Part shown: piece after piece, positions 20,510 through 57,372 of the stretch
How positions within the stretch are numbered: the stretch's first letter is position 1
Layout of the letters: every line of letters begins with the position of its first letter
DNA from: a bacterium
Lineage (GTDB): Bacteria; Patescibacteriota; Minisyncoccia; Minisyncoccales; GWA2-46-15
Assembly (NCBI GenBank): GCA_030693425.1
Contig: JAUYAM010000003.1
Coordinates: 1-57,372 of the forward strand
Length of the DNA: 57,372 nt
Reading direction: 5' to 3'
Program-made: the position numbers and the translations under genes
Notes under the pieces: model-generated
Databases searched by the model: none
Told to the model about the DNA's origin: nothing
The model's input: the letters and a program-made list of their open reading frames with translations, nothing else

Positions 20510-23500
20510 TCATTGACGACTGTCGTCAACTGTCATTGGGCTTGGCACGGTTTCTAGCGACGCTAAAGGCTCGGGCGAGGGTTCGGGGCTGGGCGCGGGC
20601 GACGCTGCCGGGGTTTCACTTGGGGATGGTCCTTCGACAGGCTCAGGATAAACTACAGGCGATTCGCTCGGCGCCGGAGAAGGTTCTGGCGTTGGCGACG
20701 GCGTTTCCGGCGGCAGTGCGTTAACACCTGACGTTAAATCGGGCGCACCAACGTCAGGTGTTGGCGCGGCTGGTAAAACCGAATTATTAGACTGCGGGAA
20801 GGGCTGGTTGGCAGCGGATTTATCGCAATCCCCACGGAATTTCTGCCACTCGCCGTTCTCAATCCAGGTGCACCAGATCTCTCCGGTAGCCCGGTCAACC
20901 ATTTCAATCTTGTCCACGCGGGCGGTCTCGGCCGTGACTTTTCCGACAATGATTTCTTTGAGCTGAGCAATGCCGTTTTCCAGAATCAGGCCTAGAGAAG
21001 CTAAAACCTGCTTGATTTTCGCTTCCAGCCAAGGCATGGGCGTTTCCGAGCCGATGCCGCCTTCAGAATTCAAGTCAATGCCTAAAATTGTTTTAATCTC
21101 GGCAATGTCCTGATTTTGTTTCTTGGCCACTTCCAAGAGATAAAGCGGGATCTTGTCGTATTTCAAGCCATTGGGAAGGCCGTCTTTGTCGTAAATAACC
21201 AACTCGCCCAAACCGACATTGGCAAATTCTTCGGCAATAAAGCCGATTTCTTCATGGCCAGAGGCCTTGTCAGTAAAGAGTTTCGGCGAAACTTCTAAGA
21301 TTTTATTAAAGTCGACTTCAAATAAACGGATGTTATCTTTGTATCTTTGAGAAGAGGAATCGTAATAGAAGTTGCCGGTAGCAGTGTCAACCCTGACAAG
21401 ATTGTAACTGGCTGTGCCGGTCAGGCCGGCAACGGCAAATTTGGTTCCAGGAGCTGTCGTCCCGATGCCGACGTTGCCGCCTGCCAAAATGACAAACTTG
21501 TCTCCGCCGACACCAGTAGATGAGTTTACTTCAAAAGCATTGGCAGTGGCGCCATCGGCCAAAACAATCTTTTGGCCAACCACAGCCGTAGAGCCGATAT
21601 TCAAAGTTAAGCTGGCCCCGGCTAAAGTCACCACGTCGCCAGCTTGAGTAAGCGTGGCATCGCCATTGTCCCAGTTAACCACCCCGCCTTCAGCTAAGAA
21701 CAGATCTGAGAATTGTAAAGCGGTTGTGCCTAAATAAGCGCCGTCATTGGCATCGGGAACGAAACCGGTGGCAGCGGAAACCAATATTGATTGCAGTTGC
21801 GCCGTAGAAGCATTGAATATCAAGCCGGCATTTGTTCTAGCGCCTAAACTACCGGACGCCGCTGTCGCAAACAAAGGAAAAGAGGTGGTGTCAGCCGCTT
21901 CATCTGCCACTGTCACAGTGACGGCGTTGCCCGTGATTGAACCGGCAATGACATTGGTAACTTCCAGGTCAGTAAACCAGCCTTTTACCACGCGGGTGCC
22001 TGTCGCGCCTAAAGAACCTGTAATGTAAGATGTCCCAACTACATGGAGCGGAGCGCCTGGATCTATTGTCCCGATGCCGACGTAGCCGGCAAAATAAGCG
22101 GCGCCGTCTGAATCAATGTTAGCCACTTCGCTTCCGTTTTTGGTTTGGATGGAGAGTTTGGTGTTTCCGGAATTATCGCCGAGTTTTAGGTTAAGGTTAG
22201 CCTGGTTATTGGCTTTAATGTTGGCGGCGGTGAGGGAATCAATTGCCAGTTCTCCCTCGGTCATGGTCAGGCTGCCGGTGAGGGTTAAGTCTTTAGTAGT
22301 AATGGATTTTTGGACAGTTAAATCACCGGACTGGCTCATGGAAAACTTCCCGCCGGCGACACCGAAATCAAACTCTTTGGATTTAAGCTTGCCGGAAAAA
22401 TTGGCAGTCACAGCGTTTAAGTCTTTGACAACAGTCAAATCTCCGTTTCCGGAGAGGTTGGCTAACTGGGTCTTAACTCCTAGATTATCTAGTTTATAAA
22501 ATGTAATATTTCCGTCAGTATCAACAGCCAAATTCGGGTTGTACCAGGAAATATTTACCAGCATTGATATTTTTCCACAGGTTATAGAAGGATCGGTGCC
22601 GGAAGGACAGTTAATTATTTGCTCCGGATGATTAATTGGGTCAAAAGCCTCTAAGGCCTTGCCCACTGACGGTCCGACGTTGGTGGCTTTCATGCCAAAG
22701 CCGGGAATGGCGGAAGAGGTAAGAATATCGCCGATGTTGACTTGACCATTGGCAGTAGAGACTTTTATAGGAACTCTACCAGACATGGCAATGGGTTGAG
22801 GATTAGTGGAAAAATTAATTACTGCTCTCCCGAATGTTTGGACCGGAGAAGTTGAAACAATTCCTAATACCTCTTTCTGATAAGATTGATCAGCTTTTTT
22901 TACAATAGTTACTGTTTTTTGTTCGTTTTCGCCAAGAAGTTCTCCAGTTAGAGCGTTTACCTTAGGAGATTCGTAGTTCAAGGTTTGATTTGTGGCTGAA
23001 ACAATGTCAGCCGGCTCAACTCCGGTTTCTGCAGGATACCACTCGGCAATGTCTCCCGGCGCTGCTGAGCAAGCAACAATATCACGGTCGACAAAAGTGG
23101 TATCAGAGTCGGCACCTGAATGGCACAGTCCATTGGTGGTGGCGGTACCATTAGAATCAAGTTGAATATCCCCATTAACCTCAAATTCTTGACTCGGTGC
23201 CACCCCGATGCCGACGTAGCCGGCAGCGGTTATTGTCATTCTTGTAGAAACAGCGGCGCTGCTTTCAGTAGTTTGAAGATAAATTGCTCCGCCAGTGCCA
23301 TCAGTTGTTACGCTTACACCGCCAACTCCACCCCTTAAATATAAAACTCCTCCTGTGCCGCCAAGTGTATCTCCAGTCCCGCCTATTCCACCATATACAT
23401 AAGCATTTCCGCCAGCGCTACCTTGTAGCCCACCAGCTCCCCCAGTTCCACCCCTTAAATATGAAGCCCCGCCAACGCCAGAAGTATCTGAAGTCCCGCC

Positions 23501-26500
23501 AGAAGCCACTCCGCCTGTTCCTCCAGTTAAAGTAATTCCTCCGCCTGCTCCGCCCACCCTTGTTGTTCCTATCGTAGTTGCCGTCCCGCCAGTTCCTCCT
23601 GTAATAGTTGCAGTTCCACCTTTACCGCCAGTAGAGGAGGTCGCAGCCGAACTGGCAACACCTCCAACTCCACCCGCAAAAGTAAAGTCTGCTCCTATTC
23701 CGCCAACTCCAGTTGAAGCAATTGAGGTTGTCCCGCCTATTCCGCCTGAAATTACCAAAGTATCTGTTGCCGCAGTCCCCGGAGTTGTGCCGGCATCCGC
23801 GGGTTGTGATCCGGCAATGTTGAGCACTGCAGTTGGTGTCGCGTCTCCGATGCCGACGTTGCCAGTAGAATCTAATATCATTTTTTGATCCGCACCGATA
23901 TACCAGTTGAAGCCGGGACCCCTGAAATCAAGGCCTGTTGACGAAACACCTAACCCGTGTACCGCATTACTATCACCATCGTCATAGAGCTTAAGTTTCA
24001 TATTCGCTCCTCCAGTATTTGAATATGTGCCTCCGAGTGACAACGTAACAGGAGTAGCTGTTTCTACCGGGCTTTGTGTTCCAATCTGGAGAGTATTCAA
24101 CGGACTGGTCGTCCCGATGCCGACGTTACCAGCATTTGTAATTGTCACAGCAGCATTTGTCAAATCTGCACTTGTGACATCAGCGGCTGATTGAGCCAAA
24201 AAGTGTAATGACCCTCTACCATAAGTAGAAGTTCGCTCGAATACAATCGCTGACTTTATTGGATAATCAGAACCACTAGAATATGAAGCAAACCCCATGC
24301 CCACAAAAGCATTAGTAGCTATATTTCCTTGTATACGTAGGTCAAATGTGTTTGGCGCAGAGTACTGAATATGAAGTCTACCTTGTGGCGCTGTCGTCCC
24401 GATGCCGACGTTGCCGGCTCCTGCTTCTGAGACAAAAGCATAGGTGTTGGTTACAGACGATCCTCCACTGGTGGTTGGCGCGGCGGCATAGTTCAGGTAG
24501 AGATTGGTGACCACGCTGGTTGTCCCAATCCCGATGTTTCCGCTGGCATAGTTGACAAACAGATTGGTAAGTTGGGGCGATGTCCCTCCTATCCCAATGT
24601 TCGGTCTGTTGTATAAACCATAGATCGAAGTTACCGGAGTAGCCGAAGCCATTGTTCCCGTGTAACTGTTGTTGAGCTTGGTGGTGTAGTATGTTCCCGC
24701 ACTGACGGCTGTAACTGACTGACCAATATCCAAAGTTCCTCCTGGCCCCGTCGTCCCGATGCCGACGTTGCCACTGTTTGTTATTCTCATTCTCTCGTCG
24801 GCCATCCCCACTGGGCCTGCATCGGAAGCAGAATCATTTAAAAATACTATATCGCCCTTACCCCAAAAACCAGTAGTGTTAACGTATCCAATAGCACCCT
24901 TTCCCATTCTCCCCGCCGCACCATCCACAAGAAAATTTTGAAAAACGGTATATCCGATGTCATTGTAGGGATTTGCAAGGATTGAGGCGTAGACAACTCC
25001 CGATGCGGCGACAGGTGAAACGTGAAGTGTGGCTAATGGTCCCGTTGTCCCGATGCCGACGTTGCCGGCATTTGCTTCTGTGACAAAAGCATATTTGTTA
25101 GTCAAGGTGCCTGCGGTTACTGTAGGAGCGGCGATGTAAGAACCATACCAATTTGTTACCGTTGTCCCACTTTTATTTAAAGTAAAACCACTCTTTTGAT
25201 TGAATATGTTGGTAACAGTATTACCAGTGTATGTGGGATTGACATCCAAATAACCGCCCGGAGACCCTGTCGCGATGCCGACGTTGCCCCCACCTGTAAC
25301 TAGTGCGTAACCAGTAGTTGAAGTAAAGTAGCCCCCAATACCCGATGAAGCATTCTGTCCATACACGCCATAGCCGGTACTGCTGTTATATCCATGCACA
25401 CCTTTGCCGGCGGCGCCAGCGTTAGATCCATACACGCCGTAGCTGGTGCCGGTGCCATATATGCCGGCGTTGGCTACACCGGCACCTCCAACACTCAATG
25501 TCGATATGGGTCCCGTTGTCCCGATGCCGACATTCCCGCCTGCCAGGATAACAAACTTGTCCCCGCCCACTCCGGCTGAAGAATTGACTTCAAAAGCATT
25601 GGCAGTGGCGTTGGCAGCCAGGACAATCTTCTGGCCGACTACGGCAGTGGAACCGATACCAAGGTGCAAAAGGGCAGTAGGTGCCGTCGTCCCGATGCCG
25701 ACGTTGCCGCCTGTATTGAAATAACTGTTTCCGTTATACCCTCTAAAACGAATTGTTGGAGTTACGCTACTATCACTACTAAATAAGTCGAAATATCCGC
25801 CTGAGTTATTCCCTAACAAAGATCCTGCACGGATAGAGCCAGTTGTTAAATTTATTCCAGTACCTTCTGTTGCACCAACTATGTCTAACTTATACCCTGG
25901 CCCTGTCGTCCCGATGCCGACGTTGCCGCCGTCATACACTCCAAAAATTGTGGAGCCATTGTCCCTTGCCAAGAAAATTGGGGAAGTTTGAGTACCATTG
26001 TCTGCAATTAAAGCTGCTGATTCAAAAGTGGGTGTAGTATTTTGCAGCCCAAAATAACCAGCGATTTGTATCGGAGAGGTGCCGGTATTAAGTCCAAAAG
26101 CGGCTAATCCAATATTTGTGGCTGAGTTCTTGGCAATGGTAGCTCTGCCTAAGATGCCGAAATTTACATTGCCGTTTTCTCCCAAACCAAACAGACCAAT
26201 GTTTGTACCCGTTGTTGTACCATAAGCTAGACTGTTATTGCCTATATTGGTAGAAGGAGAAGTAGCTGCGGTAGAAAGATTCAAATTCGTCCCTGTTCCC
26301 GCGACCGAATTTCCGATAAATAATCCACGGGCACCAGAAGTACCCGTGTAACCAGCATTATATAATATTCTCATTGCTCCATTGTTAAAACTGGAACTTC
26401 CAGCACTGGTAACATTAACATCGATTCCAAATTGCACATTTGTTATAACTGTGGGTTGGGTGGCGGTTATACTTAAACTATTAGTCTGGTCAGTAAGTGT

Positions 26501-29500
26501 TCCACTTGCAATATCCAGTGTTGCCCCCGGTGCCGTCGTCCCGATGCCGACGTTGCCGCTACTATCAATTCTCATTCTTTCGGTAGAACTTTCCGAGCCG
26601 TCGGCAGTTGTCCAAAAACTTAAACGCCCTGGCATATCTCCTGCACCTGGTGTGCCATCTACGTAAGCAGCGATGTATGCGGCAGTTGACTGATAGTCAA
26701 CACCATCATCTCCGCCCCAAGCAATCATTCCTAACTGGTCATTGTTTTGTGCGATTGTGTAGCTACCGATGGCAGCATTACGGCTTTTGCCAAAAATTAA
26801 CTTAGGCGCAAGGGCATCTGCTGATGCTCGAAATATACCAATTGATGAATCTACCGCACCCGTTCCCAATACTTGCAATTCTGGTATCTGACCGGCTCCT
26901 GAGCCAGCCGTTAGTGTCACCTGTGATGAGTTGCCAATGATTAAACCAAATCCATTTGATATTTCAGTATCCCCATTAACCGTTAATACATTACCAGGTA
27001 AAGTCGTCCCGATGCCGACGTTGCCGGCTCCTGCTTCTGAGACAAAAGCATAGGTGTTGGTGACCGATGACCCACTATTTAAAGTTGGCGCGGCTGCATA
27101 GTTCAGGTAGAGATTGGTGACCACGCTGGTTGTCCCAATCCCGATGTTTCCACTAGTGTAGTTAACAAACAGATTGGTCAGCTGGGGTGATGTTCCTCCT
27201 ATCCCGACATTCGGCCGGTTATACAAACCATAGATACTCGTCACCGGAGTGGCTGAAGCCATTGTTCCCGTGTAACTGTTGTTGAGTTTGGCGGTGTAGT
27301 ATGTCCCAGCGCTTGCTGCCGTGACTGCCTGACCAATATCCAATGTCCCTCCCGGACTCGTCGTCCCGATGCCGACTAGGCCCGCCGAAGTGACAACGAA
27401 GGAGGCCGTTGCCGAACTATTGACTTGAAAAATTTGTGATGGCGCCGTCGTCCCGATGCCGACGTTGCCGGCTTTCAGATATAAAGTATTGACAATGGCG
27501 CCGGTGTTTACCGATGTGAAAGGCACGACCGAGTTTTGAGTCAGAGTAAAATCCGCGCCCGGAGCAATGTTGGCGATGACCGGAGAGGTAATAGTGGGCG
27601 AAGCGTTAAAAACTGCAAGCCCTGTGCCTGTTTCGTCGGTTACGGCAGCAATCAAGTTCGCAGATGTCGGGGTTCCGAGGAATGTCGCCACACCTGTGGC
27701 AAGTCCACTTACACCTGTGCTGATAGGCAACCCAGTGGCGTTGGTAAGCACACCTGAAGCAGGAGTGCCTAATGCTGGAGCCACAAACGTTTTATTACTC
27801 ATCGTCTGGGCTTTGGTTTTGAAAGTGAACTCATCCACTACATTGGCAAAATCTGGGATAGTCAGAGTCGTAGCCCCAACTGTTTGGGCGGTAAGTGCGA
27901 CATCTACAAGATACGCATTTGTTAATTTAAGAGGAGTAGCCGCGGAAGTTGCGAGAGAGGTTGCAGAAGCTACGCCGAGAGTTGGAGTTGTCAAAGCAGG
28001 CGAGGTTGAAAATACTAAATTAGTTGATGTAGTGCCAGTTGCGCCTGCGGCGGTATAACCCGTGATATTGTTAAATAAAGTAATTGAAGCAGTTGAACCT
28101 CCTGTCCCACCGTCTGCAACTGCAACATCATTTCCTCCTGTGCTGTAAATTGTTCCCGTTATTCCTTGTAGAGTTAGAGTTGTCGTTCCCGCTACTGCGG
28201 CGGCATTCAAAATAGATGAACCAGAAGTTGAACCGGCGAGAATAAACTTATCAACAGCCCCTCCGATAGTTCCAAATGTTTTAGCTCCTGTTACCGTTTG
28301 AACAGAAGCAAGAACCATATCTCCAGCCCCGGCAGTAGCCCAAGTTAATACTCCCGCACCATCTGTTTGCAATAATTGGTTCGCGGTTCCATCATCGATG
28401 GGTAGAGTAAGCGTGTAAGTTCCTGCTGCTGCGGCAGGTTGAATGATAATTTTACCAGAAGTATTGCCAGCAAATGAAATAACACCCTTAGTAGTTCCTG
28501 CTAATCCTAATGATAATAATTCAAGTGGTGCCGTCGTCCCGATCCCTACATTCCCGCCTGCCAGAATGACAAACTTGTCCCCGCCGACTCCGGCAGAAGA
28601 GTTGACTTCAAAAGCGTTGGCAGTAGCTCCCGAAGCCAAAACAATCTTTTGACCGACAACAGCGGTGGAACCGATGCCTAAATGTAATAAAGCGGTGGGA
28701 GCGGTAGTGCCGATGCCCAGATTGCCGTTAATTCCTACAACATCTGTCGAAAAATCTCCCCAGATTAAAGGCGAGGAGGAATTTGAATTTTCAATGTATA
28801 GTTTATTAGAGCCCGTTTCGTTATATCCTGCTTGATAGCCAAAAAATATGTTGCTGGAACCATCGCCATTGTAACCAGCTGCATAACCTATCAAGACATT
28901 ATTAGTGCCGGTATTAAGGGCGGCAGTAGTATAGCCAATAGCAATACTATTGCCTCCAGCAATGGCATTTTTACCCACAGCCACAGCTTGATTGCCGGTC
29001 GTGCTCGCATCGGATCCTATGGCCACGCCCCTGTAAGCAGCAGAAGCGTTGGAACCAATAGCAACGGCTCTGCTGTTAGTAACGGTAGCAACGTACCCTA
29101 TTGCCACTGATTCGGTAAAAGAACCGACAGAAGCAAGATAACCAAACTTTTCGCTCGAACTATTGGTCAAACTTGTAATATTTCCGACCACCTGCAAGGC
29201 TGCTATCGGTTCCGTCGTCCCGATGCCGATGTTGCCGCTTCCTAAAATTGTCATTGCTTGGGCCAGAGCACTGTCTGTGGTGCTGGTGATGGCGGTAATG
29301 CTGACAGTTGCTCCTGTCCCTGTTCCGCCGGTGGTTACCTTGCCCGTGCCGGTCGTGTAGCCTGTTCCTGCCGCCGCCGGAGCCGTGTTCAAGGTTAGAA
29401 CCACGCCGCTTCCATCAACTGTGGCTACCGTCACTGTTCCACCCGTTCCTCCAGTCGTAACCGTCAAAGTGTCAGCGGCAGTGTAACCAGTCCCGCCAGC

Positions 29501-30955
29501 GGTAGGTGTTGCGCTTATGGTGCTGATACCTCCTGTGGTTAGAGCAGAAGAAGTCCAGAACTGTATTTGTCCCGTCCCCGTTCCCGTGGAAAGACCAGAA
29601 GAAAGAACCAGTGACCCACCATTTTTATCTGTGGCCCCACTGGTTGCTCCACCGGCATTGACCGTCAAAGCATATCCGGCCGTATCGGCAACCGTCCCCC
29701 GTTCCATACCAAAACCTCTGGCCGCATCGCCGCCTAATCCAAGTAAACGAGTCGGTCCCGTCGTCCCGATGCCGACGTTGCCGGCAGTGGAATCAATGAT
29801 CAATCCATAAGAAGTGCCTGATGTGACTGTTCCTCCGGTTATCTTTAAGCCGGTAGAGGTGACTGTACCCGTTGTTTGAGTGATATTCGGCATCGTGACG
29901 TCAAGCCCTGTCCAGGTGTCTGTGCCGGTGAGTGTGTTCTGGACCAAGGCGCCGCCGGTAATAACCAGGCCTTTGTAAGCATAGGTTGAGGCGCCGGTGT
30001 TGGTGACAGCCGGCAAGCTAATGGTTTGGCCGGTCGCGGAATAACCCGTGGCCGTGATATTGGTTGACAAATCTATTGCCTGGCCAACCAAATTGCCTGC
30101 TAAAGTGGCGGCTGCTCCGTAAGCCAGGTTCAGGACAGTGCCCGAAGTATTCTTGGAGTTTAAATAAGCCAGGTTGGCAGAAGAGACATTGGTGCCGGTT
30201 AAAGTCAGGGCCGTGGCATTGGATCCTGGCACGGCTGACAGGATGGTGAAAGCGCCGGTTGAGGGTGTAGTAGAACCAATGCCGGCGGGCGAACCCCAGG
30301 TATAGCCGCTTAATTGCTTGGCTTCAAAGGCAGCCGGCACTGCGCCCAAAACTTTTCTCGGCTTCATTTCCGAGTCAGCGCCGACAGTGACGCCTAGATA
30401 AAGCGTCTGGTTGAAGTTGACTGAACTCAAAGATGTAATTGTCCCTAGCATTGTCGAGAACAAGCCGTTCTTAACATAAATCCGATTGGTAATGTCGTCG
30501 TTACTCACCCAGGTTGAAGCCGGATCGTAAAAGCAGACATAACCGCCAGCTCCTGCGGCGCTGACTGACTGAATGACGGCTGATTCCTTTTTGGTCGTGT
30601 TCCACAAATACTGGCCAGCTGCCAAAGCGCTTTCGTTGGTATCGGTGGTATATGCCATCTTATCCACCCCGGTAGCACAGCCGTCATTGGTAAAAGTGGT
30701 GGTGCCGGTTTCGGTAAACAAAGCAGCGCTGGTCCAAGACTCGGTCCAGCTGGTCGAACCGCCGCCGGCAACGGTATAAAGATTGAAAACAATGTCATAG
30801 GCATTGTCAGCCACTGCCTGACTGCTGGTATCAGTTAATTTTCCCTGGTAATTGATTTTTTCATTTATCGCTGCCAAAGACTCCTGGACAAAAACAGCCC
30901 TAAAGAGGAGAAGGAGCAGAAGGATAATACAGATTTTGGCAGCTTTGTTGTTCAT
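20510..30955 (-). CDS. Giant secreted fibre/adhesin-like protein with about 24 GNVGIGTT repeats and a C-terminal tail-fibre-type intramolecular chaperone domain
   Basis: Uninterrupted ORF. Start chosen at ATG 30955 (MNNKAAKICIILLLLLLF... signal peptide). The track start at 31015 would overlap the upstream gene by 44 nt. The tail is Pro/Ser-rich. Confidence 0.9.
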   Translation of the reverse strand: MNNKAAKICIILLLLLLFRAVFVQESLAAINEKINYQGKLTDTSSQAVADNAYDIVFNLYTVAGGGSTSWTESWTSAALFTETGTTTFTNDGCATGVDKMAYTTDTNESALAAGQYLWNTTKKESAVIQSVSAAGAGGYVCFYDPASTWVSNDDITNRIYVKNGLFSTMLGTITSLSSVNFNQTLYLGVTVGADSEMKPRKVLGAVPAAFEAKQLSGYTWGSPAGIGSTTPSTGAFTILSAVPGSNATALTLTGTNVSSANLAYLNSKNTSGTVLNLAYGAAATLAGNLVGQAIDLSTNITATGYSATGQTISLPAVTNTGASTYAYKGLVITGGALVQNTLTGTDTWTGLDVTMPNITQTTGTVTSTGLKITGGTVTSGTSYGLIIDSTAGNVGIGTTGPTRLLGLGGDAARGFGMERGTVADTAGYALTVNAGGATSGATDKNGGSLVLSSGLSTGTGTGQIQFWTSSALTTGGISTISATPTAGGTGYTAADTLTVTTGGTGGTVTVATVDGSGVVLTLNTAPAAAGTGYTTGTGKVTTGGTGTGATVSITAITSTTDSALAQAMTILGSGNIGIGTTEPIAALQVVGNITSLTNSSSEKFGYLASVGSFTESVAIGYVATVTNSRAVAIGSNASAAYRGVAIGSDASTTGNQAVAVGKNAIAGGNSIAIGYTTAALNTGTNNVLIGYAAGYNGDGSSNIFFGYQAGYNETGSNKLYIENSNSSSPLIWGDFSTDVVGINGNLGIGTTAPTALLHLGIGSTAVVGQKIVLASGATANAFEVNSSAGVGGDKFVILAGGNVGIGTTAPLELLSLGLAGTTKGVISFAGNTSGKIIIQPAAAAGTYTLTLPIDDGTANQLLQTDGAGVLTWATAGAGDMVLASVQTVTGAKTFGTIGGAVDKFILAGSTSGSSILNAAAVAGTTTLTLQGITGTIYSTGGNDVAVADGGTGGSTASITLFNNITGYTAAGATGTTSTNLVFSTSPALTTPTLGVASATSLATSAATPLKLTNAYLVDVALTAQTVGATTLTIPDFANVVDEFTFKTKAQTMSNKTFVAPALGTPASGVLTNATGLPISTGVSGLATGVATFLGTPTSANLIAAVTDETGTGLAVFNASPTITSPVIANIAPGADFTLTQNSVVPFTSVNTGAIVNTLYLKAGNVGIGTTAPSQIFQVNSSATASFVVTSAGLVGIGTTSPGGTLDIGQAVTAASAGTYYTAKLNNSYTGTMASATPVTSIYGLYNRPNVGIGGTSPQLTNLFVNYTSGNIGIGTTSVVTNLYLNYAAAPTLNSGSSVTNTYAFVSEAGAGNVGIGTTLPGNVLTVNGDTEISNGFGLIIGNSSQVTLTAGSGAGQIPELQVLGTGAVDSSIGIFRASADALAPKLIFGKSRNAAIGSYTIAQNNDQLGMIAWGGDDGVDYQSTAAYIAAYVDGTPGAGDMPGRLSFWTTADGSESSTERMRIDSSGNVGIGTTAPGATLDIASGTLTDQTNSLSITATQPTVITNVQFGIDVNVTSAGSSSFNNGAMRILYNAGYTGTSGARGLFIGNSVAGTGTNLNLSTAATSPSTNIGNNSLAYGTTTGTNIGLFGLGENGNVNFGILGRATIAKNSATNIGLAAFGLNTGTSPIQIAGYFGLQNTTPTFESAALIADNGTQTSPIFLARDNGSTIFGVYDGGNVGIGTTGPGYKLDIVGATEGTGINLTTGSIRAGSLLGNNSGGYFDLFSSDSSVTPTIRFRGYNGNSYFNTGGNVGIGTTAPTALLHLGIGSTAVVGQKIVLAANATANAFEVNSSAGVGGDKFVILAGGNVGIGTTGPISTLSVGGAGVANAGIYGTGTSYGVYGSNAGAAGKGVHGYNSSTGYGVYGQNASSGIGGYFTSTTGYALVTGGGNVGIATGSPGGYLDVNPTYTGNTVTNIFNQKSGFTLNKSGTTVTNWYGSYIAAPTVTAGTLTNKYAFVTEANAGNVGIGTTGPLATLHVSPVAASGVVYASILANPYNDIGYTVFQNFLVDGAAGRMGKGAIGYVNTTGFWGKGDIVFLNDSASDAGPVGMADERMRITNSGNVGIGTTGPGGTLDIGQSVTAVSAGTYYTTKLNNSYTGTMASATPVTSIYGLYNRPNIGIGGTSPQLTNLFVNYASGNIGIGTTSVVTNLYLNYAAAPTTSGGSSVTNTYAFVSEAGAGNVGIGTTAPQGRLHIQYSAPNTFDLRIQGNIATNAFVGMGFASYSSGSDYPIKSAIVFERTSTYGRGSLHFLAQSAADVTSADLTNAAVTITNAGNVGIGTTSPLNTLQIGTQSPVETATPVTLSLGGTYSNTGGANMKLKLYDDGDSNAVHGLGVSSTGLDFRGPGFNWYIGADQKMILDSTGNVGIGDATPTAVLNIAGSQPADAGTTPGTAATDTLVISGGIGGTTSIASTGVGGIGADFTFAGGVGGVASSAATSSTGGKGGTATITGGTGGTATTIGTTRVGGAGGGITLTGGTGGVASGGTSDTSGVGGASYLRGGTGGAGGLQGSAGGNAYVYGGIGGTGDTLGGTGGVLYLRGGVGGVSVTTDGTGGAIYLQTTESSAAVSTRMTITAAGYVGIGVAPSQEFEVNGDIQLDSNGTATTNGLCHSGADSDTTFVDRDIVACSAAPGDIAEWYPAETGVEPADIVSATNQTLNYESPKVNALTGELLGENEQKTVTIVKKADQSYQKEVLGIVSTSPVQTFGRAVINFSTNPQPIAMSGRVPIKVSTANGQVNIGDILTSSAIPGFGMKATNVGPSVGKALEAFDPINHPEQIINCPSGTDPSITCGKISMLVNISWYNPNLAVDTDGNITFYKLDNLGVKTQLANLSGNGDLTVVKDLNAVTANFSGKLKSKEFDFGVAGGKFSMSQSGDLTVQKSITTKDLTLTGSLTMTEGELAIDSLTAANIKANNQANLNLKLGDNSGNTKLSIQTKNGSEVANIDSDGAAYFAGYVGIGTIDPGAPLHVVGTSYITGSLGATGTRVVKGWFTDLEVTNVIAGSITGNAVTVTVADEAADTTSFPLFATAASGSLGARTNAGLIFNASTAQLQSILVSAATGFVPDANDGAYLGTTALQFSDLFLAEGGVVNWDNGDATLTQAGDVVTLAGASLTLNIGSTAVVGQKIVLADGATANAFEVNSSTGVGGDKFVILAGGNVGIGTTAPGTKFAVAGLTGTASYNLVRVDTATGNFYYDSSSQRYKDNIRLFEVDFNKILEVSPKLFTDKASGHEEIGFIAEEFANVGLGELVIYDKDGLPNGLKYDKIPLYLLEVAKKQNQDIAEIKTILGIDLNSEGGIGSETPMPWLEAKIKQVLASLGLILENGIAQLKEIIVGKVTAETARVDKIEMVDRATGEIWCTWIENGEWQKFRGDCDKSAANQPFPQSNNSVLPAAPTPDVGAPDLTSGVNALPPETPSPTPEPSPAPSESPVVYPEPVEGPSPSETPAASPAPSPEPSPEPLASLETVPSPMTVDDSRQ
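20513..20529. repeat. REP family 1 palindrome (TTGACGACTGTCGTCAA) between the giant ORF and the transposase gene
   Basis: Read directly. The central base is T, so it is inverted relative to 19757 and 20306. Lies 18 nt upstream of the transposase start and supplies the last codons (..DDSRQ) of the giant ORF. Confidence 0.9.
21060..21370 (-). other. Peptidase_S74-like intramolecular chaperone (endosialidase/tail-fibre C-terminal) domain within the giant ORF
   Basis: Translation YYDSSSQRYKDNIRLFEVDFNKILEVSPKLFTDK....EIGFIAEEFANVGLGELV fits the S-x-x-K-x-N-I ... IGFIAqE pattern of auto-cleaving tail-fibre chaperone domains. Coordinates are approximate. Confidence 0.6.
24393..24772. repeat. About 380-bp intragenic direct repeat, copy 1 (partner at 27003-27382)
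   Basis: Long blocks identical by eye (e.g. 'gtcgtcccgatgccgacgttgccggctcctgcttctgagacaaaagcataggtgttgg'). Encodes GGTLDIGQ.VTA.SAGTYYT.KLNNSYTGTMASATPVTSIYGLYNRPN.GIGGTSPQLTNLFVNY..GNIGIGTTSVVTNLYLNYAAAPT. Confidence 0.85.
25515..25708. repeat. About 190-bp intragenic repeat (copies at 21456-21606 partial, 25515-25708 and 28533-28726)
   Basis: Encodes GIGTTAPTALLHLGIGSTAVVGQKIVLA..ATANAFEVNSS.GVGGDKFVILAGGNVGIGTT three times. Nucleotide similarity seen directly. Confidence 0.8.
27003..27382. repeat. About 380-bp intragenic direct repeat, copy 2
   Basis: See 24393-24772. The mismatches are of all substitution types. Confidence 0.85.
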
Positions 30956-30971
30956 CAAAAATAATAAAAAG

Positions 30972-31442
30972 TTATGGCTGGGGAATGGTCGAACCCTGGA
31001 CCTCCTTAGTCTCATCTAAAGAATAATTGGTAAAAGCTGAAAGATTGAACCGGCCGATAGTCTCTCCGCCTGACCCGCCTAAAATGATTTTGTCAACTAT
31101 CATACTTTTAGGTTCGATAAAATCGCCAGCCCCGGCATTAATGTTCAAACCCAGGCCCAAAAAAATAAAAATACCAATACCCACCAAAACAAAAAACCAG
31201 GCCACTAAACCCAAAAGCCGGTCTGGTCTAAATAAACGCCTAAGCCTGACTGCCGGAAGAGAGATTTTTTTTAGGTGAAAATAGTTTTCAAGAGCTTGGT
31301 TAGCAATAAACCAGTCCCGACCGACCATTTTTCCTTTAAGTTTGCCTTTGCGGATTAATAAACCCAAATAATCCGGATGGTAGCCGGAAATATGCGACGC
31401 TTGCTTAAGGGAAAGAAACCCTTTTTCTGGAATAGTGGTCAT
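30972..31442 (-). CDS. Membrane-anchored protein with N-terminal excisionase/MerR-type helix-turn-helix
   Basis: LSLKQASHISGYHPDYLGLLIRKGKLKGKMVGRDWFI fits the HTH_17-type pattern, followed by one TM helix (LLGLVAWFFVLVGIGIFIFLGL). Paralogous N-terminus to 42392-43468. Confidence 0.75.
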   Translation of the reverse strand: MTTIPEKGFLSLKQASHISGYHPDYLGLLIRKGKLKGKMVGRDWFIANQALENYFHLKKISLPAVRLRRLFRPDRLLGLVAWFFVLVGIGIFIFLGLGLNINAGAGDFIEPKSMIVDKIILGGSGGETIGRFNLSAFTNYSLDETKEVQGSTIPQP

Positions 31443-31593: not shown

Positions 31594-31708
31594 ACCCCGT
31601 TGCAATCCATAGCTTGGTTGATGTAATTATATTGACCAGAGCCGATAGGCGGCTACCGCCTCTTGGCCATAATATTCTCATTGGTTGTTGGCGGGATTGC
31701 TACGGGGT
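31594..31708. repeat. 115-bp hairpin element, third copy (intergenic), flanked by TTTACC direct repeats at 31591 and 31708
   Basis: 15-bp terminal stem ACCCCGTTGCAATCC / GGATTGCTACGGGGT with one T:T mismatch. The core GCCGATAGGCGGCT is at the same offset (nt 48-61) as in the pilin-gene copies. Confidence 0.8.
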
Positions 31709-45790: not shown

Positions 45791-45809
45791 AGGAAGTTCC
45801 TTAGAAGAA

Positions 45810-48038: not shown

Positions 48039-48749
48039 TTACTCCAAACCGATTTTTTCCGGGTCATAAAAACTACCCTTATAATCAATTTGTTGATTGA
48101 TAAGATCACGGCACCTTTTTTCTCCGCCAATCGTTTTTAATAAAAATTTCCTTTCGCTGACTGATGGAAAATTCTTCTTGCCAATATAGTCTAGATAACT
48201 CGACCAACGATAATTTTTTAGAAAATGTTTAGCCCTTGCTCGATTTCTGATGCCTTTTTCTTTCCATTTCGGCTCAATAATGGCAAGCGGGTTGGTGTGA
48301 ATATAAGTGAGAACCCTTTCCAGCTGTTTATCGGTCTTGATGTGAACGGCGTGAAACCGTCCCTGAAATAAATGACCGCTACGTTTGTATTTCCGATTAA
48401 AATAAGAGGCATAACCAGTACCCAATTTTTGGATAAATAGACTGATGCCCTTGGGTTTTATCTGCCGTAAAAGCAAATGAATATGATTGGGCATTAATAC
48501 AAAAACTAAAACCTCAACTAATAAAGTCCGTTCAAAATTACCCGAGGTCAGACCTCGGGCCATCTGTTTTTTAAAACGAAAACGCTCTTTTCTCCGATCT
48601 TTAATAGATACTGGTTTGGCATTATTGAACTCGAATAAGGAAAAAATCCCGCGGTAATGATCCGCTTCGTCCAAAAAAATCTGCCTCTGCTCAACTCCAC
48701 GGAGAACGATGTGGTAAATTTCTCCGTCAACTAGCTTTGGTCTTTTCAT
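48039..48749 (-). CDS. IS200/IS605-type Y1 HUH transposase-like protein (second, divergent RAYT-like gene)
   Basis: 236 aa with IYHIVLRGV, the HUH motif in LMPNHIHLLLRQ, GHLFQGRF, and the catalytic-Tyr helix LTYIHTNPL. Confidence 0.88.
   Translation of the reverse strand: MKRPKLVDGEIYHIVLRGVEQRQIFLDEADHYRGIFSLFEFNNAKPVSIKDRRKERFRFKKQMARGLTSGNFERTLLVEVLVFVLMPNHIHLLLRQIKPKGISLFIQKLGTGYASYFNRKYKRSGHLFQGRFHAVHIKTDKQLERVLTYIHTNPLAIIEPKWKEKGIRNRARAKHFLKNYRWSSYLDYIGKKNFPSVSERKFLLKTIGGEKRCRDLINQQIDYKGSFYDPEKIGLE
48541..48559. repeat. REP family 2 palindrome inside the transposase ORF
   Basis: Perfect copy, in frame, encoding ARGLTSG about 20 aa upstream of the HUH motif. Confidence 0.9.
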
Positions 48750-48836: not shown

Positions 48837-49190
48837 TTAACGGACAATGCGAATTCCTCGTTTGACGTCTTTGTAAGCGCCGATCGATTTAAGGCAATAA
48901 TTCAATCCCGGGCAATCGAGGCCGGGACTCAAATAGTCGACTCCGTAGCTGGCGCCGTTTAACTGCTCTTCCCATCGGGTCTGAGTCGATCCATTAACCA
49001 GAGCATAAAGGGATCTTTCGATCCCGGTTTCGGCGGCGTAAAAAGCGGCGACAGAATTTCCTATATTTCTCAGGCTTTTTATCTGGCTGGTCAAAAGGAT
49101 AGAAGATCCCAGAGCGACGCTCAAAACTAAAGCCAGAATCATGACCGTCAAATAAAGGGAAACTCCTCGGGAAAATTTGTTATTGGGCAT
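48837..49190 (-). CDS. PilX-like minor pilin (N-terminal PilX_N-type anchor)
   Basis: SRGVSLYLTVMILALVLSVALG followed by AAFYAAETGIERSLYAL, the typical PilX N-terminal pattern. Confidence 0.7.
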   Translation of the reverse strand: MPNNKFSRGVSLYLTVMILALVLSVALGSSILLTSQIKSLRNIGNSVAAFYAAETGIERSLYALVNGSTQTRWEEQLNGASYGVDYLSPGLDCPGLNYCLKSIGAYKDVKRGIRIVR

Positions 49191-49207: not shown

Positions 49208-49765
49208 TTACTTATCAAGCCTTCTTTGGGAAAGACTCGTCTGAACCGTCAGGAAAGGCTCCATCTCCGGTTTTGCGCTTTTCCTCTTCAGGGTCAGGGA
49301 AAAAGTGACTCTGGGCTGAAGGTCGTCTGCCTGGTCCTGGCCCGAAAGGCCGACGCCAAAAGCAACTGCTTGCGAGTTTTCCGACGTCAGAAACTGTTCC
49401 TGGGTGTCTTTTTTCTCCTTGAGCCTGCTGGTTGAGACATCCAAAAAGAATTCCTGGCAAACATTGTCAGAATTAACAAACTTTATCCCCTTGCCGCTCC
49501 TGGTAGTCTCATAGTTCAAATTGGGGGCTGAAAGACAGCCCGTCGTCTCTCTCTTTGCCATTCTCAAAGATCTGCTCATATATTCCATCAGGAAAGAGGT
49601 CTGGTCAAAAATAGTTTGAAAAGCCAGAGACCGGCGCTGGCTCTGAAAGTTAACCAGAAAGATATTGCCGACAATGGCAACGACAACAGAGAAAAGCGTT
49701 ACCGCCACCAGCAGTTCAACTATTGTCAGTCCCGCGTCACTTTTAGTTTTATCTTTAGAATTCAT
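49208..49765 (-). CDS. PilW-like minor pilin (prepilin-type N-terminal domain)
   Basis: Start chosen at ATG 49765 (MNSKDKTKSDAG|LTIVELLVAVTLFSVVVAIV), 9 nt after the upstream stop. The track ORF start at 49834 overlaps the upstream gene. Confidence 0.78.
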   Translation of the reverse strand: MNSKDKTKSDAGLTIVELLVAVTLFSVVVAIVGNIFLVNFQSQRRSLAFQTIFDQTSFLMEYMSRSLRMAKRETTGCLSAPNLNYETTRSGKGIKFVNSDNVCQEFFLDVSTSRLKEKKDTQEQFLTSENSQAVAFGVGLSGQDQADDLQPRVTFSLTLKRKSAKPEMEPFLTVQTSLSQRRLDK

Positions 49766-49773
49766 AATTGTTT

Positions 49774-50385
49774 TCACCAATTGTAAAGCTTTTCGCTGGC
49801 TAAAAAAGAATGCGTCCTGCCTTTTTCTTGCCAAAGAACCTGGACCTCGATTTTCAAGATATCTGTGTCTGGGTCCGGGTTTTCCGAAGCGTCTTCTGTC
49901 GTCAGAGTAATTTTCCTCTGGTAGCTCGTCGCCTGGCCTAAAGCATAATTGTAAAAACTGCCGTCGTTCAGCAAATTACGCCCTGTTGTCCAAGGAGTTA
50001 AAGACTGGCTGGAATAATCTGCTTCGCAGCCAGTAGCAGCGCATCCAGTCAGGCCGGTCAGCCAATCAACTTCTTTTACTTTATTGCTATCTCTTAAGTT
50101 CCTAATGATTTCTATTCCTTCCTGGGCCAGATAGCTTGCCATCAGCCTTTGCCCGGAAAGCGGCAAAAAACTCGTCGTTTGCTGGACCAGCGAGAAAACG
50201 GCGATAATGGCGACAACCATTATAAACAAAGAAAACAAAACTTCCAAAAGAGTGAACCCCCACACCAAGCCTTTATTGGGCTGTTTGTTTACACTAACCG
50301 AAGCCGATAGGCGGCTTCGCCTTATAGCCAATGGAGATTTACTAGTTAAACGCGGGTTTGGTGTGGGGGTGAATCCGTTTTTCAT
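49774..50385 (-). CDS. PilV-like minor pilin with a 39-codon insertion in its leader peptide
   Basis: MKNGFT-[insert]-WGFTLLEVLFSLFIMVVAIIAVFSL, then LAQEGIEIIRNL (PilV-like). Confidence 0.82.
   Translation of the reverse strand: MKNGFTPTPNPRLTSKSPLAIRRSRLSASVSVNKQPNKGLVWGFTLLEVLFSLFIMVVAIIAVFSLVQQTTSFLPLSGQRLMASYLAQEGIEIIRNLRDSNKVKEVDWLTGLTGCAATGCEADYSSQSLTPWTTGRNLLNDGSFYNYALGQATSYQRKITLTTEDASENPDPDTDILKIEVQVLWQEKGRTHSFLASEKLYNW
50256..50370. repeat. 115-bp hairpin element, copy A, inside the pilin leader-coding region
   Basis: Terminal stem ACCCCCACACCAAGCC / GGGTTTGGTGTGGGGGT, central hairpin GAAGCCG-ATAGG-CGGCTTC, and TTCAC direct repeats 117 bp apart (50373-50369 and 50256-50252, minus sense). 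Confidence 0.85.
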
Positions 50386-50386
50386 T

Positions 50387-51031
50387 TTAATAAATTTCGA
50401 TTAGACCGGCTTTGTTAACTCTAATCGTCTTATGCTTGCCTGAAACTTGTTTTATGGCGACGGTTGCCGTCGCCTCGTTGGCTCCGCCGGAAATCGTTAC
50501 CAAGGGGATCGGTGGCGTAAAAACGACGTTCAAAACTGAACCAGAAGACAGACTGCTGATTTCCAGTCTTTCTCCCAAACTAACTTCTTCTACTTTCTCC
50601 GAATATCCGCCTTCGCAAGGAGTGCCGGCAGCAGTATATTGGTAGTTTTGGTCGCAATCGGCAAAAAGAGTATAAAGGCTATCTCCTGCCCTTAAATAGA
50701 CGCCGTAGCCTCCTCTGGGGATTTTCCCGTGAAATTCTTTGGCAGACATGGCCATTTCCTCCATCCTTCTGAAATCCTGACCGAGCTTGGCCGCCGATTC
50801 TTCCAGGGAAAAACTTTTCTCTCCCAAGCGGTAATTTACCAGAACCAAAAAAAACAAAACCAAAATGATAGTCATCACCACCAGCAACTCGATCAGGGTA
50901 AACCCCCACACCAAACCTTTGTTAGGCTGTCTGTTTACACTGACTGAAGCCGATAGGCGGCTTCGCCTTATGGTCAATGAAGATTTACTAGCTAAACGCG
51001 GGTTTGGTGTGGGGGTAAAACCGTGTTTCAT
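50387..51031 (-). CDS. FimT/GspH-like minor pilin with the same 39-codon insertion in its leader peptide
   Basis: MKHGFT-[insert]-WGFTLIELLVVMTIILVLFFLV, then EESAAKLGQDFRRMEEMA (GspH/FimT-like). Confidence 0.82.
   Translation of the reverse strand: MKHGFTPTPNPRLASKSSLTIRRSRLSASVSVNRQPNKGLVWGFTLIELLVVMTIILVLFFLVLVNYRLGEKSFSLEESAAKLGQDFRRMEEMAMSAKEFHGKIPRGGYGVYLRAGDSLYTLFADCDQNYQYTAAGTPCEGGYSEKVEEVSLGERLEISSLSSGSVLNVVFTPPIPLVTISGGANEATATVAIKQVSGKHKTIRVNKAGLIEIY
50902..51016. repeat. 115-bp hairpin element, copy B, inside the pilin leader-coding region
   Basis: 16-bp perfect terminal stem. I count 10 mismatches to copy A over 115 nt. TTTACC direct repeats lie 117 bp apart (51019-51014 and 50902-50897, minus sense). 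Confidence 0.85.
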
Positions 51032-51034
51032 TTC

Positions 51035-51123
51035 AACATTTTAACATTTTAACATTTTAACAGCCAGAAACTTCCTAACCCATAATGTTAGAATGTTAGA
51101 ATGTTAGGATGCTAGGATGCTAG
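51035..51123. repeat. Two octamer arrays in inverted orientation: (AACATTTT)x3.5 at 51035-51062 and (AATGTTAG)x3 + (GATGCTAG)x2 at 51084-51123
   Basis: Read directly. The arrays fill the spacer between the FimT-like start (51031) and the upstream gene stop (51120). Confidence 0.85.
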
Positions 51124-55817: not shown

Positions 55818-57372
55818 TTAATAGTTGACTTTTATTCCCGTTAAATCTTGATCTTCGGCCAAGTTTGGCCAATCTTTGTAATCAATTCTTGGCGCCGATA
55901 ATCTGAAGGAAACCTCGCCCGCCCTTTCCCCGTAAATTATTATGGTATTTTTGCTTTTCTCATACCAAGTTTTTCCCTCAAACCCAGGAGTTAGTAAAAC
56001 CGCCACGTCTTTTATGTTTTTATTAGACACCTGCCAGAACAGCCACAAATCGGAACCAATTTCTAATTCATCGAAATTAATCGCGATTTCCGGTTGTAAG
56101 TTGTCAGTTGTAGGTTGCGAGTTGTCGGTCGTCAGTTGTAAGTTGTCAGTTGTCAGTTGTATAGTTCCGGCTGTTTCCATTCTTACTCCGCCGGCAAAAT
56201 CTGAAACATAGGTGGCATATTTCTTGCCGTTAATATCATAGACCGGGTCAATGGTCCCAACATTTAATTTTCCCCCACCACTGCTGCCAATCATAACTGC
56301 ACCACTGCCTCGAAATATCCACTGGCCACTATCAGAATCCTCTCCAAAGTAAAAATGTTTTGTCGAACCTGAAGTAGAATTGCGGTTCAAAACTCCGGCA
56401 ACAGTCGCATCCCCTGACATGAAATTTAATCGAGAATAACTGCCACCTCCATCTAATCTCAAAGATTCTCCTCCGCCATAAACGTGGAGTCTTACAACAG
56501 GACTCGCCGTGCCGATGCCGACATTGGTACCATTGTTGAAAATCAGGCTGTTTGCGATCCAATTTGTGCCATTATGCCTTAAGGTTTGGCCGGAAGTGCC
56601 AGTCGGTAGTCCGCTGGCTGGCGTAGTCCAAGTGGCTAAACCGACGGCATTTGAAGTCAAAACCTTGTTTGCGCCCGGCAAACCGCCGGTGATTTTAATT
56701 TGACCGGCAATTTCTAATTTTGCTCCCGGATTCGCCGTTCCGATGCCGACGTTGCCGGAAGTATTCCAGATGCCCGAACCCGGAAAATTGGTGTTCGCGG
56801 AAAAAGTTTGAGCACCTGTCCAGGTATTGACATTAGCAAGATTAATACCAACTGAGTCAGCAGCAACAGTCAAAGTTGAATTACCAGCAACATTGATAGT
56901 AGTAAAAGTCCCACCGGCTCCAACAGCAATTGCGCCGCCACCTCCAGTTAGCCCATTTCCAGCCGCAGGACCGGTAAGACTAACATTTCCTCGAGCTGCT
57001 GTTCCAGCAACTGAACCATAAACTACAGAGATATTATCAGCAGCCACTGAAATTCCGGTCCCCGCCCCCACATCCAAAGTAACATTCCCTGAAGTGCCTC
57101 CGCCAGTAAGTCCTGAGCCGGCACTAACTGCGGTGATGTCACCTCCTGCTGGCCAACTTGAACGGCAATCAGTATTAATACATAAACCCGAAGAGCCCCT
57201 TACATAACCTATTACATCCAATTTCTGAGTAGGCCCCGCCGTCCCGATGCCGACGTTGCCGCCTCTTAGACTAAGCGTCCTTGTATTGTCAGAATACAAA
57301 TCGAGCTGTCCACTTCCGGCCCAGTTCAATCCTGTATCGGTGTCTCCTATCGCTAATTTAATTGTTGGGTTC
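55818..57372 (-). CDS. Second GNVGIGT-repeat surface protein, 3' part only (ORF open to the window edge)
   Basis: The 'start' at 57329 is a TTG inside an open frame: upstream codons read ..NPTIKLAIGDTDTGL with no stop. Contains GNVGIGTAGP, GNVGIGTANP and TNVGIGTASP. Confidence 0.85.
   Translation of the reverse strand, partial: NPTIKLAIGDTDTGLNWAGSGQLDLYSDNTRTLSLRGGNVGIGTAGPTQKLDVIGYVRGSSGLCINTDCRSSWPAGGDITAVSAGSGLTGGGTSGNVTLDVGAGTGISVAADNISVVYGSVAGTAARGNVSLTGPAAGNGLTGGGGAIAVGAGGTFTTINVAGNSTLTVAADSVGINLANVNTWTGAQTFSANTNFPGSGIWNTSGNVGIGTANPGAKLEIAGQIKITGGLPGANKVLTSNAVGLATWTTPASGLPTGTSGQTLRHNGTNWIANSLIFNNGTNVGIGTASPVVRLHVYGGGESLRLDGGGSYSRLNFMSGDATVAGVLNRNSTSGSTKHFYFGEDSDSGQWIFRGSGAVMIGSSGGGKLNVGTIDPVYDINGKKYATYVSDFAGGVRMETAGTIQLTTDNLQLTTDNSQPTTDNLQPEIAINFDELEIGSDLWLFWQVSNKNIKDVAVLLTPGFEGKTWYEKSKNTIIIYGERAGEVSFRLSAPRIDYKDWPNLAEDQDLTGIKVNY
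56093..56162. repeat. The same heptamer family (GTTGTNA x10) inside coding sequence
   Basis: Encodes QLTTDNLQLTTDNSQPTTDNLQ. Read directly. Confidence 0.85.

Follow-up and report, generated by a model that had tools for sequence, protein, structure and literature searches.

Two minor-pilin genes with a split prepilin motif

The DNA studied here, called the window throughout, is a stretch of 57,372 nt from a bacterium of the Patescibacteriota (contig JAUYAM010000003.1 of assembly GCA_030693425.1), in which two adjacent minor-pilin genes each carry a palindromic insert close to their start. On the basis of their open reading frames (ORFs) and NCBIfam matches, gene A (49774..50385, minus strand) is predicted to encode a PilV-like minor pilin of 203 aa and gene B (50387..51031, minus strand) a GspH/FimT-like minor pilin of 214 aa. 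All genes around both inserts lie on the minus strand, in the order PKD-domain gene, gene B and gene A, and two more pilin-like ORFs (49208..49834 and 48837..49190) are located 3' of gene A. The gene A product opens with MKNGFT, continues for 33 aa and then reads WGFTLLEV, so that 39 inserted codons separate the original start from the functional G|FTLLEV. Gene B has the same arrangement, with MKHGFT, 33 aa and WGFTLIEL, its 39 inserted codons being followed by G|FTLIELLVV. Ahead of residue 43, both proteins consist of MK(N/H)GFT joined to PTPNPRL...NKGLVW. The original prediction, made from the letters alone, had described a prepilin motif MK(N/H)GFT|L(L/I)E split by 39 codons in two adjacent genes, and this is what is seen on the minus strand.

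Protein family matches place the beginning of the pilin proper at the second G-F. In gene A all NCBIfam matches begin at residue 43, the best being type_IV_pilV (2e-7, under the curated cut-off). Gene B matches IV_pilin_GFxxxE above the curated cut-off at residues 43-63; its best full-length NCBIfam model is GspH, likewise from residue 43 and under the cut-off, and Pfam N_methyl aligns to residues 43-62, also under the cut-off. It is at this second G-F that the signature of a class III signal peptide, G(-1)|F(+1)-x-x-x-E(+5) together with a hydrophobic helix, is found. Of the ORFs scanned in the window, none was recognised as encoding a prepilin peptidase.

The two inserts, taken as 50256-50370 and 50902-51016, differ at 10 of 115 positions (91% identity) and lie within a 142-nt direct repeat that is 89% identical. 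Downstream of the repeat, the next 27 nt match at only 13 positions between the two genes (48%, counted by eye on the alignment), and the alignment of the two proteins is confined to residues 1-64, in keeping with the earlier remark that the mature pilins are barely alignable. Both copies are bounded by 16-bp terminal inverted repeats (CCCCCACACCAA) that are 94-100% matched and in the gene B copy extend to 27 nt at 81%, and both contain the central hairpin GAAGCCG-ATAGG-CGGCTTC; the mismatch count, the inverted repeats and the hairpin previously reported were all recovered. The terminal 16-mer occurs four times against 0.3 expected and the 26-nt centre twice against 0 expected. When folded as RNA, the 127-nt stretches gave -46.9 kcal/mol (z = -4.6) for the gene A copy and -58.1 kcal/mol (z = -7.9) for the gene B copy, with the stem-loop beginning 16 nt after the AUG.

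The insert had been taken for a 115-bp unit at a spacing of 117 bp. The spacing holds, but the unit is better described as 113 bp plus a 4-bp duplication, its limits (termini CCCCC...GGGGG) having been set by comparison with >120 relatives. Copy 1, in gene A, thus occupies 50257..50369, with termini CCCCCACACCAAGCC and GGTTTGGTGTGGGGG, the central hairpin and the RNA fold as evidence; it is flanked by the target-site duplication TGAA on the plus strand (TTCA in gene sense) at 50253..50256 and 50370-50373, which gives the 117-nt period as 113 + 4. Copy 2, in gene B, is defined by repeats and RNA fold at 50903..51015, is 91% identical to copy 1, and is flanked by TAAA (TTTA in gene sense) at 50899..50902 and 51016-51019. 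Of the longer junction repeats proposed before, TTCAC and TTTACC, the 4-bp duplication stands, the additional bases being a chance match or an overlap with the repeat.

Two related copies bring the number in the 57-kb window to four; no further window copy with the exact termini of the pilin copies was found. Copy 3 (31595..31707, 113 bp) is intergenic and belongs to the same interior family, being ~60% identical over its whole length. Its termini CCCCGTTGCAATCC and GGGATTGCTACGGGG differ from those of the pilin copies yet are complementary to each other, and it is flanked by a TTTA duplication (31591-31594 and 31708-31711). Copy 4 (10980..11134, 155 bp) has a different interior and the termini CCCCGCACCAACTTTGC and GCAAAGTTGGTGCGGGG, lies just upstream of ORF 7689..10970 on the minus strand, and is flanked by a TAAA duplication at 10976-10979 and 11135-11138. 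Both G-F-T pilin sites of the window are occupied, and the lone G-L-T pilin, which has no TTYA, is free of an insert. A scan of the window for tRNA genes returned nothing; Rfam 15 gave nothing at the gathering score and only microRNA-like noise at E <= 10.

Gene callers start insert-bearing pilins at the wrong codon, and automatic gene calling drops their signal peptide: the entry for gene A in the protein collection is a 148-aa product from an internal Met (P0001). A separate feature lies between the PKD-domain gene and gene B, where 51024-51123 forms a long AT-rich hairpin of 8-nt tandem units, three to four copies of AACATTTT standing opposite three to four copies of the complement AATGTTAG; Rfam gives only microRNA-like noise for it.

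Empty sites and the extent of the element family

Homologues of gene A (99 found) mostly have leaders of <15 residues, for example MKQGFTLLEV or MAKGFTLLEV. A close relative is represented by a contig (L135) on which both genes occur in the same order, gene A being 81% identical by BLASTP and the mature pilins roughly 80% identical to those of the window as judged by eye. Its gene B site is empty and reads ...CGCGGTTTTACCCTAATTGAACTGCTGGTGGTGATG, CGC GGT TTT ACC CTA ATT GAA CTG CTG GTG GTG ATG. Since this is window gene B minus the 113-bp element and one TTTA, the element is an insertion. The L135 gene A retains the old start ATGAGGAACGGTTTTA, which is followed by an unrelated element of ~190 bp with termini ACCCCGTAAGAAAT...ATTTCTTACGGGGT and an in-frame TAA; the protein now starts at an ATG inside the element (MVQSFPKPQKPIRFLTG|FTLLEV). 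Two distinct members of a single kind of element have thus struck the same codons in independent events. The empty sites which the original prediction had suggested looking for therefore exist, both in the short-leader orthologues and in L135 gene B. Neither of the two observations that it had named as speaking against an insertion was made: a long leader is not common to the orthologues, and the insert, at 91% identity, has not diverged like the flanking pilin DNA at ~48%.

The insert peptide is also present in a different pilin (P0078) of another metagenome-assembled genome (MAG). Exact look-ups found neither the gene B nor the P0078 protein on record; a protein search with the 67-aa N-terminus of gene B gave one candidate and no match, and a full-length gene A query did find insert-bearing proteins. 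In a further locus (L134, 638-900 and 1445-1720) two adjacent pilins each have three to four tandem elements in the leader, separated by TTTA, and are still single open frames (P0099: MKNNFKNLKKQKKGFTPTPNF...VWGFTPHPFAKKVRGFTLIE).

The wider family was defined by scanning one genome per species with the pattern CCCCACACCAA-N70-100-TTGGTGTGGGG, for which we estimate ~2 chance matches. At least 120 loci with hairpin elements sharing 12-bp termini were matched, and the family statistics given below are drawn from the 102-124 copies listed among them. As labelled, the host genomes include many Patescibacteria; Planctomycetota, among them GC-rich Planctomycetales, Phycisphaerae and Sedimentisphaerales; Omnitrophota, Margulisiibacteriota and Stahlbacteria; and MAGs labelled Gammaproteobacteria or Bdellovibrionales. 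The interiors of 124 listed copies fall into 105 similarity clusters, of which 91 are singletons, and range in GC content from 9 to 65%, so that the termini alone are common to them; the inverted repeat runs ~3 bp further inward with copy-specific bases. Elements measure 30-190 bp and are without coding capacity of their own, the minimal versions consisting of the two termini only (L105 and L112). At another locus (L098, 150-360 and 650-810) we observed arrays of tandem 52-bp units, each unit opening with the left terminus CCCCACACCAA; a single right terminus closes each array, and the same terminator-like sequence follows both.

The 4-nt flanks were identical in 43 of 102 listed copies, where 2000 permutations gave an expectation of 7 and never more than 19, an excess of about six-fold; inverted 4-nt flanks showed no excess over permutation. 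The remaining listed copies look mixed, some having flanks that seem unrelated and others duplications that seem to have decayed. The target, derived from the 44 duplications that are perfect, is G(52%) | T(84%) W W A(86%) | C(48%), bordered by shoulders rich in G and in C. The consensus G|TWWA|C is palindromic, as expected for a symmetric staggered cut. TTAA occurs once among these 44, TTTA, TAAA and TATA being predominant. A metagenome scan that used the central hairpin recovered six further independent copies of the interior type found in the pilin genes. Their termini are CCCCCACACCAA, CCCCGCACCAA, CCCCGTACCAA, CCCCGTTAGAAACC or degenerate, with the arms complementary in each, and their duplications are TTGA (three copies), TCAA and TTAA/TTGA, at unrelated sites. 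In the copies sharing this interior, RNAalifold found 10 base pairs for which both arms had changed and pairing was preserved. The further copies that the original prediction had proposed to look for were thus found at unrelated sites, not just elsewhere in the window but also in metagenomes and in >120 genomes belonging to several phyla.

As to location, seven of 118 listed copies abut a pilin start (F-T-hydrophobic-x-E), compared with 0.06% of control TNNA sites, and pilin G-F-T codons are about 50-fold over-represented among the insertion sites. Five of the seven pilin cases are open from the original ATG, with a doubled G/A-F-T, and the other two use an ATG inside the element. Insertions read through by long ORFs have a period divisible by 3 in 9 of 13 cases; two of these ORFs we took for UvrA from their translations. 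Promoters of the form TTGACA-N16-18-TATAAT are likewise abutted by seven of 118 listed copies, against 0.56% of control sites. In these promoter copies the duplicated TTGA is the start of the -35 box, leaving the promoter intact on one side. Loci with a copy placed exactly on a -35 box are L122, L124/L125, L128 and L131, as well as L006, L009, L055, L062 and L094, and four of the six metagenome copies described above are located on -35 boxes. An element of the central-hairpin type is also present ~220 nt into a 23S rRNA gene (L020, 6764-6870; Rfam LSU match 6541-8000), with a second copy at 5247-5353 in the 6-kb 16S-23S spacer. Two things are hereby added to the earlier picture: the pilin G-F-T codons are an insertion hot spot, and the family far exceeds one genome.

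Probable transposition, competing explanations and known repeat families

Of the features of a miniature inverted-repeat transposable element (MITE), terminal inverted repeats, a target duplication of fixed length, small size without coding capacity and copies at unrelated sites are present. The elements are inserted with a 4-bp duplication and a target preference, occur in multiple copies at variable sites, and preserve the reading frame. We therefore consider it likely that the inserts are a miniature, non-coding, hairpin-forming DNA transposon (MITE-like) that integrated into the TTYA of pilin G-F-T codons. The small non-autonomous palindromic element at a harmless site that had originally been proposed is supported by the empty sites, the copies elsewhere and the 4-bp duplications.

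In a prepilin gene, a staggered 4-bp cut would open the TTYA contained in the codons GGN-TTY-ACN for Gly-Phe-Thr. With the element end ...TTGGTGTGGGGG followed by the duplicated TTYA, the right junction reads TTG GTG TGG GGG TTY ACN (L-V-W-G-F-T), by which a complete G|F-T-L-x-E cleavage site is rebuilt beside the hydrophobic helix. With 113 + 4 = 117 bp and no stop, the reading frame is kept. Translation would presumably proceed from the original AUG through the insert, giving a leader of 43 instead of 4 residues, and the prepilin peptidase cut should fall at the second G|F, the sole G|F with a hydrophobic helix and E at +5. Such cleavage would leave the mature pilin unchanged, making the insertion close to neutral. 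The CCC...GGG termini and the 4-bp T..A duplication suggest that mobilisation occurs in trans by a DDE-type cut-and-paste enzyme. That the site is struck repeatedly fits the palindromic target G|TWWA|C and the scarcity, in a gene-dense genome, of other places at which 117 extra bases would be harmless. Insertion moreover regenerates GGGGG-TTTA-C, which resembles the preferred target and would account for the tandem arrays in pilin leaders. Slowing or pacing of translation by the hairpin, or its cleavage by RNase III, is possible as a side effect or exaptation and would then not be the reason for the sequence.

Several observations do not sit easily with a transposon of this kind. No transposase with these termini was found in ~1 Mb of element loci. 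Termini pairs lying 130-6000 bp apart enclose ordinary genes, such as those for ribosomal proteins and pilins, and no ORF of transposase size; the ORFs of the 120 element loci include no recurrent non-housekeeping family. IMG/VR contained no paired termini, its 103 single-terminus matches being at chance level by our estimate, and the few of these with a partner enclose phage structural genes; searches of PLSDB and INPHARED gave only noise at E >= 1. In addition, ~40% of the listed copies have unrelated left and right flanks. Eight of 10 loci of the interior family seen in the window (9 of them independent) are co-oriented with the neighbouring genes, which does not reach significance; co-orientation is not expected of a symmetric cut-and-paste element. 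It is also unusual among MITEs that a 12-bp terminus should be exactly the same in AT-rich Patescibacteria and in GC-rich Planctomycetales. Finally, the covariation of the arms is explained by selection for a hairpin no less well than by transposase recognition.

The last point bears on an alternative that is compatible with a transposon origin, namely that the hairpin has been exapted to tune minor-pilin expression. Possible means are a pause in translation, cutting of the long perfect stem by RNase III, or a start at the TTG/GTG within the right terminus, which would give M(V)WG|FT. Apart from the complementarity preserved by changes on both arms and the weak co-orientation with local genes, the fold energies are far under those of shuffled sequences, AAGG(A/C/T)-TTG-GTG is conserved beside the right terminus in the interior family of the window, and in Neisseria the Correia elements are cut by RNase III and donate promoters. 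However, members of the family lie upstream of -35 boxes, outside the downstream transcript, the AAGG-to-GTG spacing is just 3-4 nt, orthologous pilins manage without the element, and no common regulon links the copies; we thus regard regulation as an unlikely explanation. Mobilisation as single-stranded DNA, in which REPIN-like hairpins would be moved by a RAYT/IS200-type (HUH) tyrosine transposase, has a local candidate, a RAYT-like Y1 transposase gene at 48039..48749 on the minus strand (Pfam Y1_Tnp passed, NCBIfam RAYT under its cut-off), 1.5 kb downstream. Recognition of structure would account for both the covarying arms and the versions without interior (L105, L112), and the weak strand and orientation bias would agree with it. 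Yet the RAYT-like gene is flanked on each side, and interrupted, by a different palindrome of its own (CCCGAGGTCWGACCTCGGG), a RAYT homologue was detected by tblastn in one of 120 element loci, and the 12-16-nt arms are not self-complementary and hence are not repetitive extragenic palindromic (REP) units. HUH insertion takes place next to a fixed tetranucleotide and yields no variable duplications; the flanking repeats here vary within one subfamily (TTCA, TTTA, TTGA, TCAA) and are true duplications. This route consequently seems quite improbable, and the neighbouring RAYT was rejected as the mobiliser, having its own REP and no homologue in 119 of the 120 element loci.

Still less probable, in our judgment, is that the 117 nt are removed from the mRNA in an intron-like manner or bypassed by ribosomes over the duplicated TTY-AC codons, which would restore MK(N/H)GFTL(L/I)E; in gene A, removal, an equally slight prospect, would join GGA-TTC-A directly to CTCTTTTGGAAG. 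The terminal stem does bring identical junctions together, identical take-off and landing codons recall T4 gene 60, and the 23S rRNA copies need either removal or tolerance. Against this, no Rfam ribozyme or intron match was obtained even at E <= 10, many copies lie outside transcription units, and the coding inserts are mostly in frame and open or else provide internal starts, which would be needless if the RNA were repaired. The tRNA genes that were hit carry an intact tRNA inside the element, which again argues against RNA repair, and the RNA-level alternative of the original prediction is accordingly disfavoured. There is scarcely any likelihood that an ancestral leader was spread by tandem duplication or by gene conversion between adjacent 5' ends. 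The two pilin copies are adjacent, co-oriented, at the same codon and 91% identical, and 5'-end conversion between paralogues is common in pilin loci, but the duplicated 4-mers differ (TTCA versus TTTA) and the similarity ends exactly at the element limits. Moreover, the two genes are of different minor-pilin types, GspH-like and PilV-like, L135 has one site empty and the other occupied by an unrelated element, and the same element is found at non-pilin sites elsewhere.

Returning to the MITE-like transposon, its closest known counterparts are the Correia elements and the Rickettsia palindromic elements (RPE), the latter reportedly described by Ogata et al. in 2000. RPE are palindromic non-coding repeats of ~100-150 bp for which a transposase is not known; many of them lie in frame in protein and RNA genes, where they are read through and tolerated because the positions are not critical. 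In-frame insertion into an ORF with read-through is found for both pilin copies of the window, for 9 of 13 ORF cases and for 5 of 7 pilin cases. However, RPE are not known outside Rickettsia and are conserved over their whole length, whereas the present elements have just 12-16 terminal bases in common and differ throughout their interiors; the present family is also set apart from RPE descriptions by its span of several phyla, its clear 4-bp duplication and its palindromic target. Correia repeat enclosed elements (CREE) and other bacterial MITEs are similar in their size (100-160 bp), terminal inverted repeats, target duplication and lack of an ORF, and occur in many copies near or in genes, with promoter association and a transcribed hairpin as a potential RNase III substrate. 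Correia elements differ in having a 26-bp repeat starting TATAGTGGATTAA and a TA duplication, in being genus-specific and in not typically lying in frame in ORFs; the present elements have termini CCCC(C/G)..., a 4-bp T-W-W-A duplication and minimal two-terminus versions.

IS1380 elements, as catalogued in ISfinder, have ends CC and 4-5-bp duplications. The 5'-CCC...GGG-3' ends, the 4-bp T..A duplication near TTAA and the palindromic target of the elements resemble piggyBac/IS1380, and the copies whose flanks differ could be accounted for if donor-flank overhangs are carried along in the process. In contrast to piggyBac, the target is not strictly TTAA (TTTA, TAAA, TATA, TTGA, TTCA and also CTTG occur) and a transposase gene was not found in the element loci; assignment to the piggyBac/IS1380 family is offered as a hypothesis. 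REP/REPIN-RAYT systems likewise have short hairpin repeats, sometimes in ~100-bp doublets, and a RAYT-like gene adjoins the pilin operon. REPINs, however, are species-specific and without a target duplication, and the nearby RAYT has its own palindrome and is unlinked to the elements elsewhere. Comparison with class III and long type IVb leaders shows the functional leader end to be canonical (G at -1, F at +1, E at +5, hydrophobic helix); what distinguishes the present leaders is that the extra 39 residues are a translated palindromic DNA element absent from orthologues. The elements behave as a MITE and, in ORFs, as an RPE, and are filed in no named family. Searches of the literature by sequence and by topic, whose coverage is incomplete so that an earlier description is possible, found no description of the family. 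The tRNA coupling described below and the cross-phylum termini are the parts that could exceed a variant of the known MITE-like kind.

These results suggest that the "long-leader" pilins seen in Patescibacteria and Planctomycetota could in many cases be products of insertion and not a distinct leader class. That phyla as far apart as these two share the 12-16-bp terminus points to a transposase or recombinase of very broad host range that has so far gone unrecognised, and the termini provide a marker for horizontal exchange between uncultured bacteria of groundwater and sediment. Streamlined genomes evidently tolerate 100-190 extra bases in signal peptides, -35 boxes, protein-coding genes such as the UvrA-like ORFs, and 23S rRNA.

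tRNA-bearing copies and other repeats

A whole tRNA gene is contained in 11 of 124 listed elements: L002 (804-906), L021 (5102-5205), L044 (4369-4479), L093 (2636-2749) and L121 (6176-6286), as well as L029, L052, L071, L099, L114 and L120. In at least 5 of the 11 the element splits, in the D-loop or the anticodon loop, a host tRNA gene that can be reconstituted and that agrees in anticodon and orientation with the tRNA inside, and two more show host tRNA remnants on inspection. No tRNA gene interrupted by an element without a tRNA was found among the 124. The inner and outer tRNAs range from nearly identical (L121) to clearly diverged, both being still foldable as judged by eye, and most of these cases are flanked by CTTG...TGAA and not by a clean duplication. 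A wobble-pair extension of the stem in the tRNA cases was considered and dropped, as it proved inconsistent between loci on inspection.

The simplest reading of the nested tRNAs is survivorship, only those insertions that bring a replacement tRNA being viable; in-situ capture and homology-guided insertion are possible alternatives. A more far-reaching and rather doubtful interpretation is that an undescribed cross-phylum system moves anything between CCCC...GGGG arms and, in an essential tRNA gene, brings along, or is built with, a working tRNA of the same anticodon. Insertion could then be coupled to gene replacement, via homology between cargo and target or via in-situ capture during repair; candidates for the enzyme would be a piggyBac-like recombinase of bacteria or one specific for hairpins. 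Should the nesting of tRNA within tRNA prove to be mechanistic, it would represent a new route by which a selfish element becomes indispensable.

The window contains a number of repeats besides the elements discussed above. The 19-bp perfect palindrome CCCGAGGTCWGACCTCGGG is present at 48001-48019, 48541-48559 and 48781-48799, that is, on both sides of the RAYT-like gene and once in frame within it, where it encodes ...MARGLTSGNF.... The RAYT gene and its palindrome are a REP/RAYT system separate from the pilin elements. Copy 3 is located in a gene-free stretch of 0.5 kb (31530-31990), the end of which (~31845-31990) has three short CCCCGC...GCGGGG hairpins with a duplicated tail. An RNase P RNA was considered for 31,530-31,930 on account of GGATAAGTCCGGGCGCC, which resembles the RNase P CR-I motif, and was dropped since Rfam gave no support even at E <= 10.

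Two more small palindrome families are intergenic, TAAAGGAGCTTAGCTCCTTT with seven copies and TTGACGACAGTCGTCAATGA with four, at 16428-16626, 19069-19253 and 45752-45792 and at 16573, 19751, 20298 and 20510. A repeat built around CCCGATGCCGACGTTGCC has 16 of its 19 window copies in a 3501-aa ORF (20510..31015, minus strand), and the motif also occurs in ORF 55818..57329. Two blocks of short TTGT(C/T)AGTTG-type tandem repeats (55683-55825 and 56080-56180) lie upstream of genes. Bases 1-128 and 129-256 form an exact tandem direct repeat, possibly an assembly artefact of the contig end.

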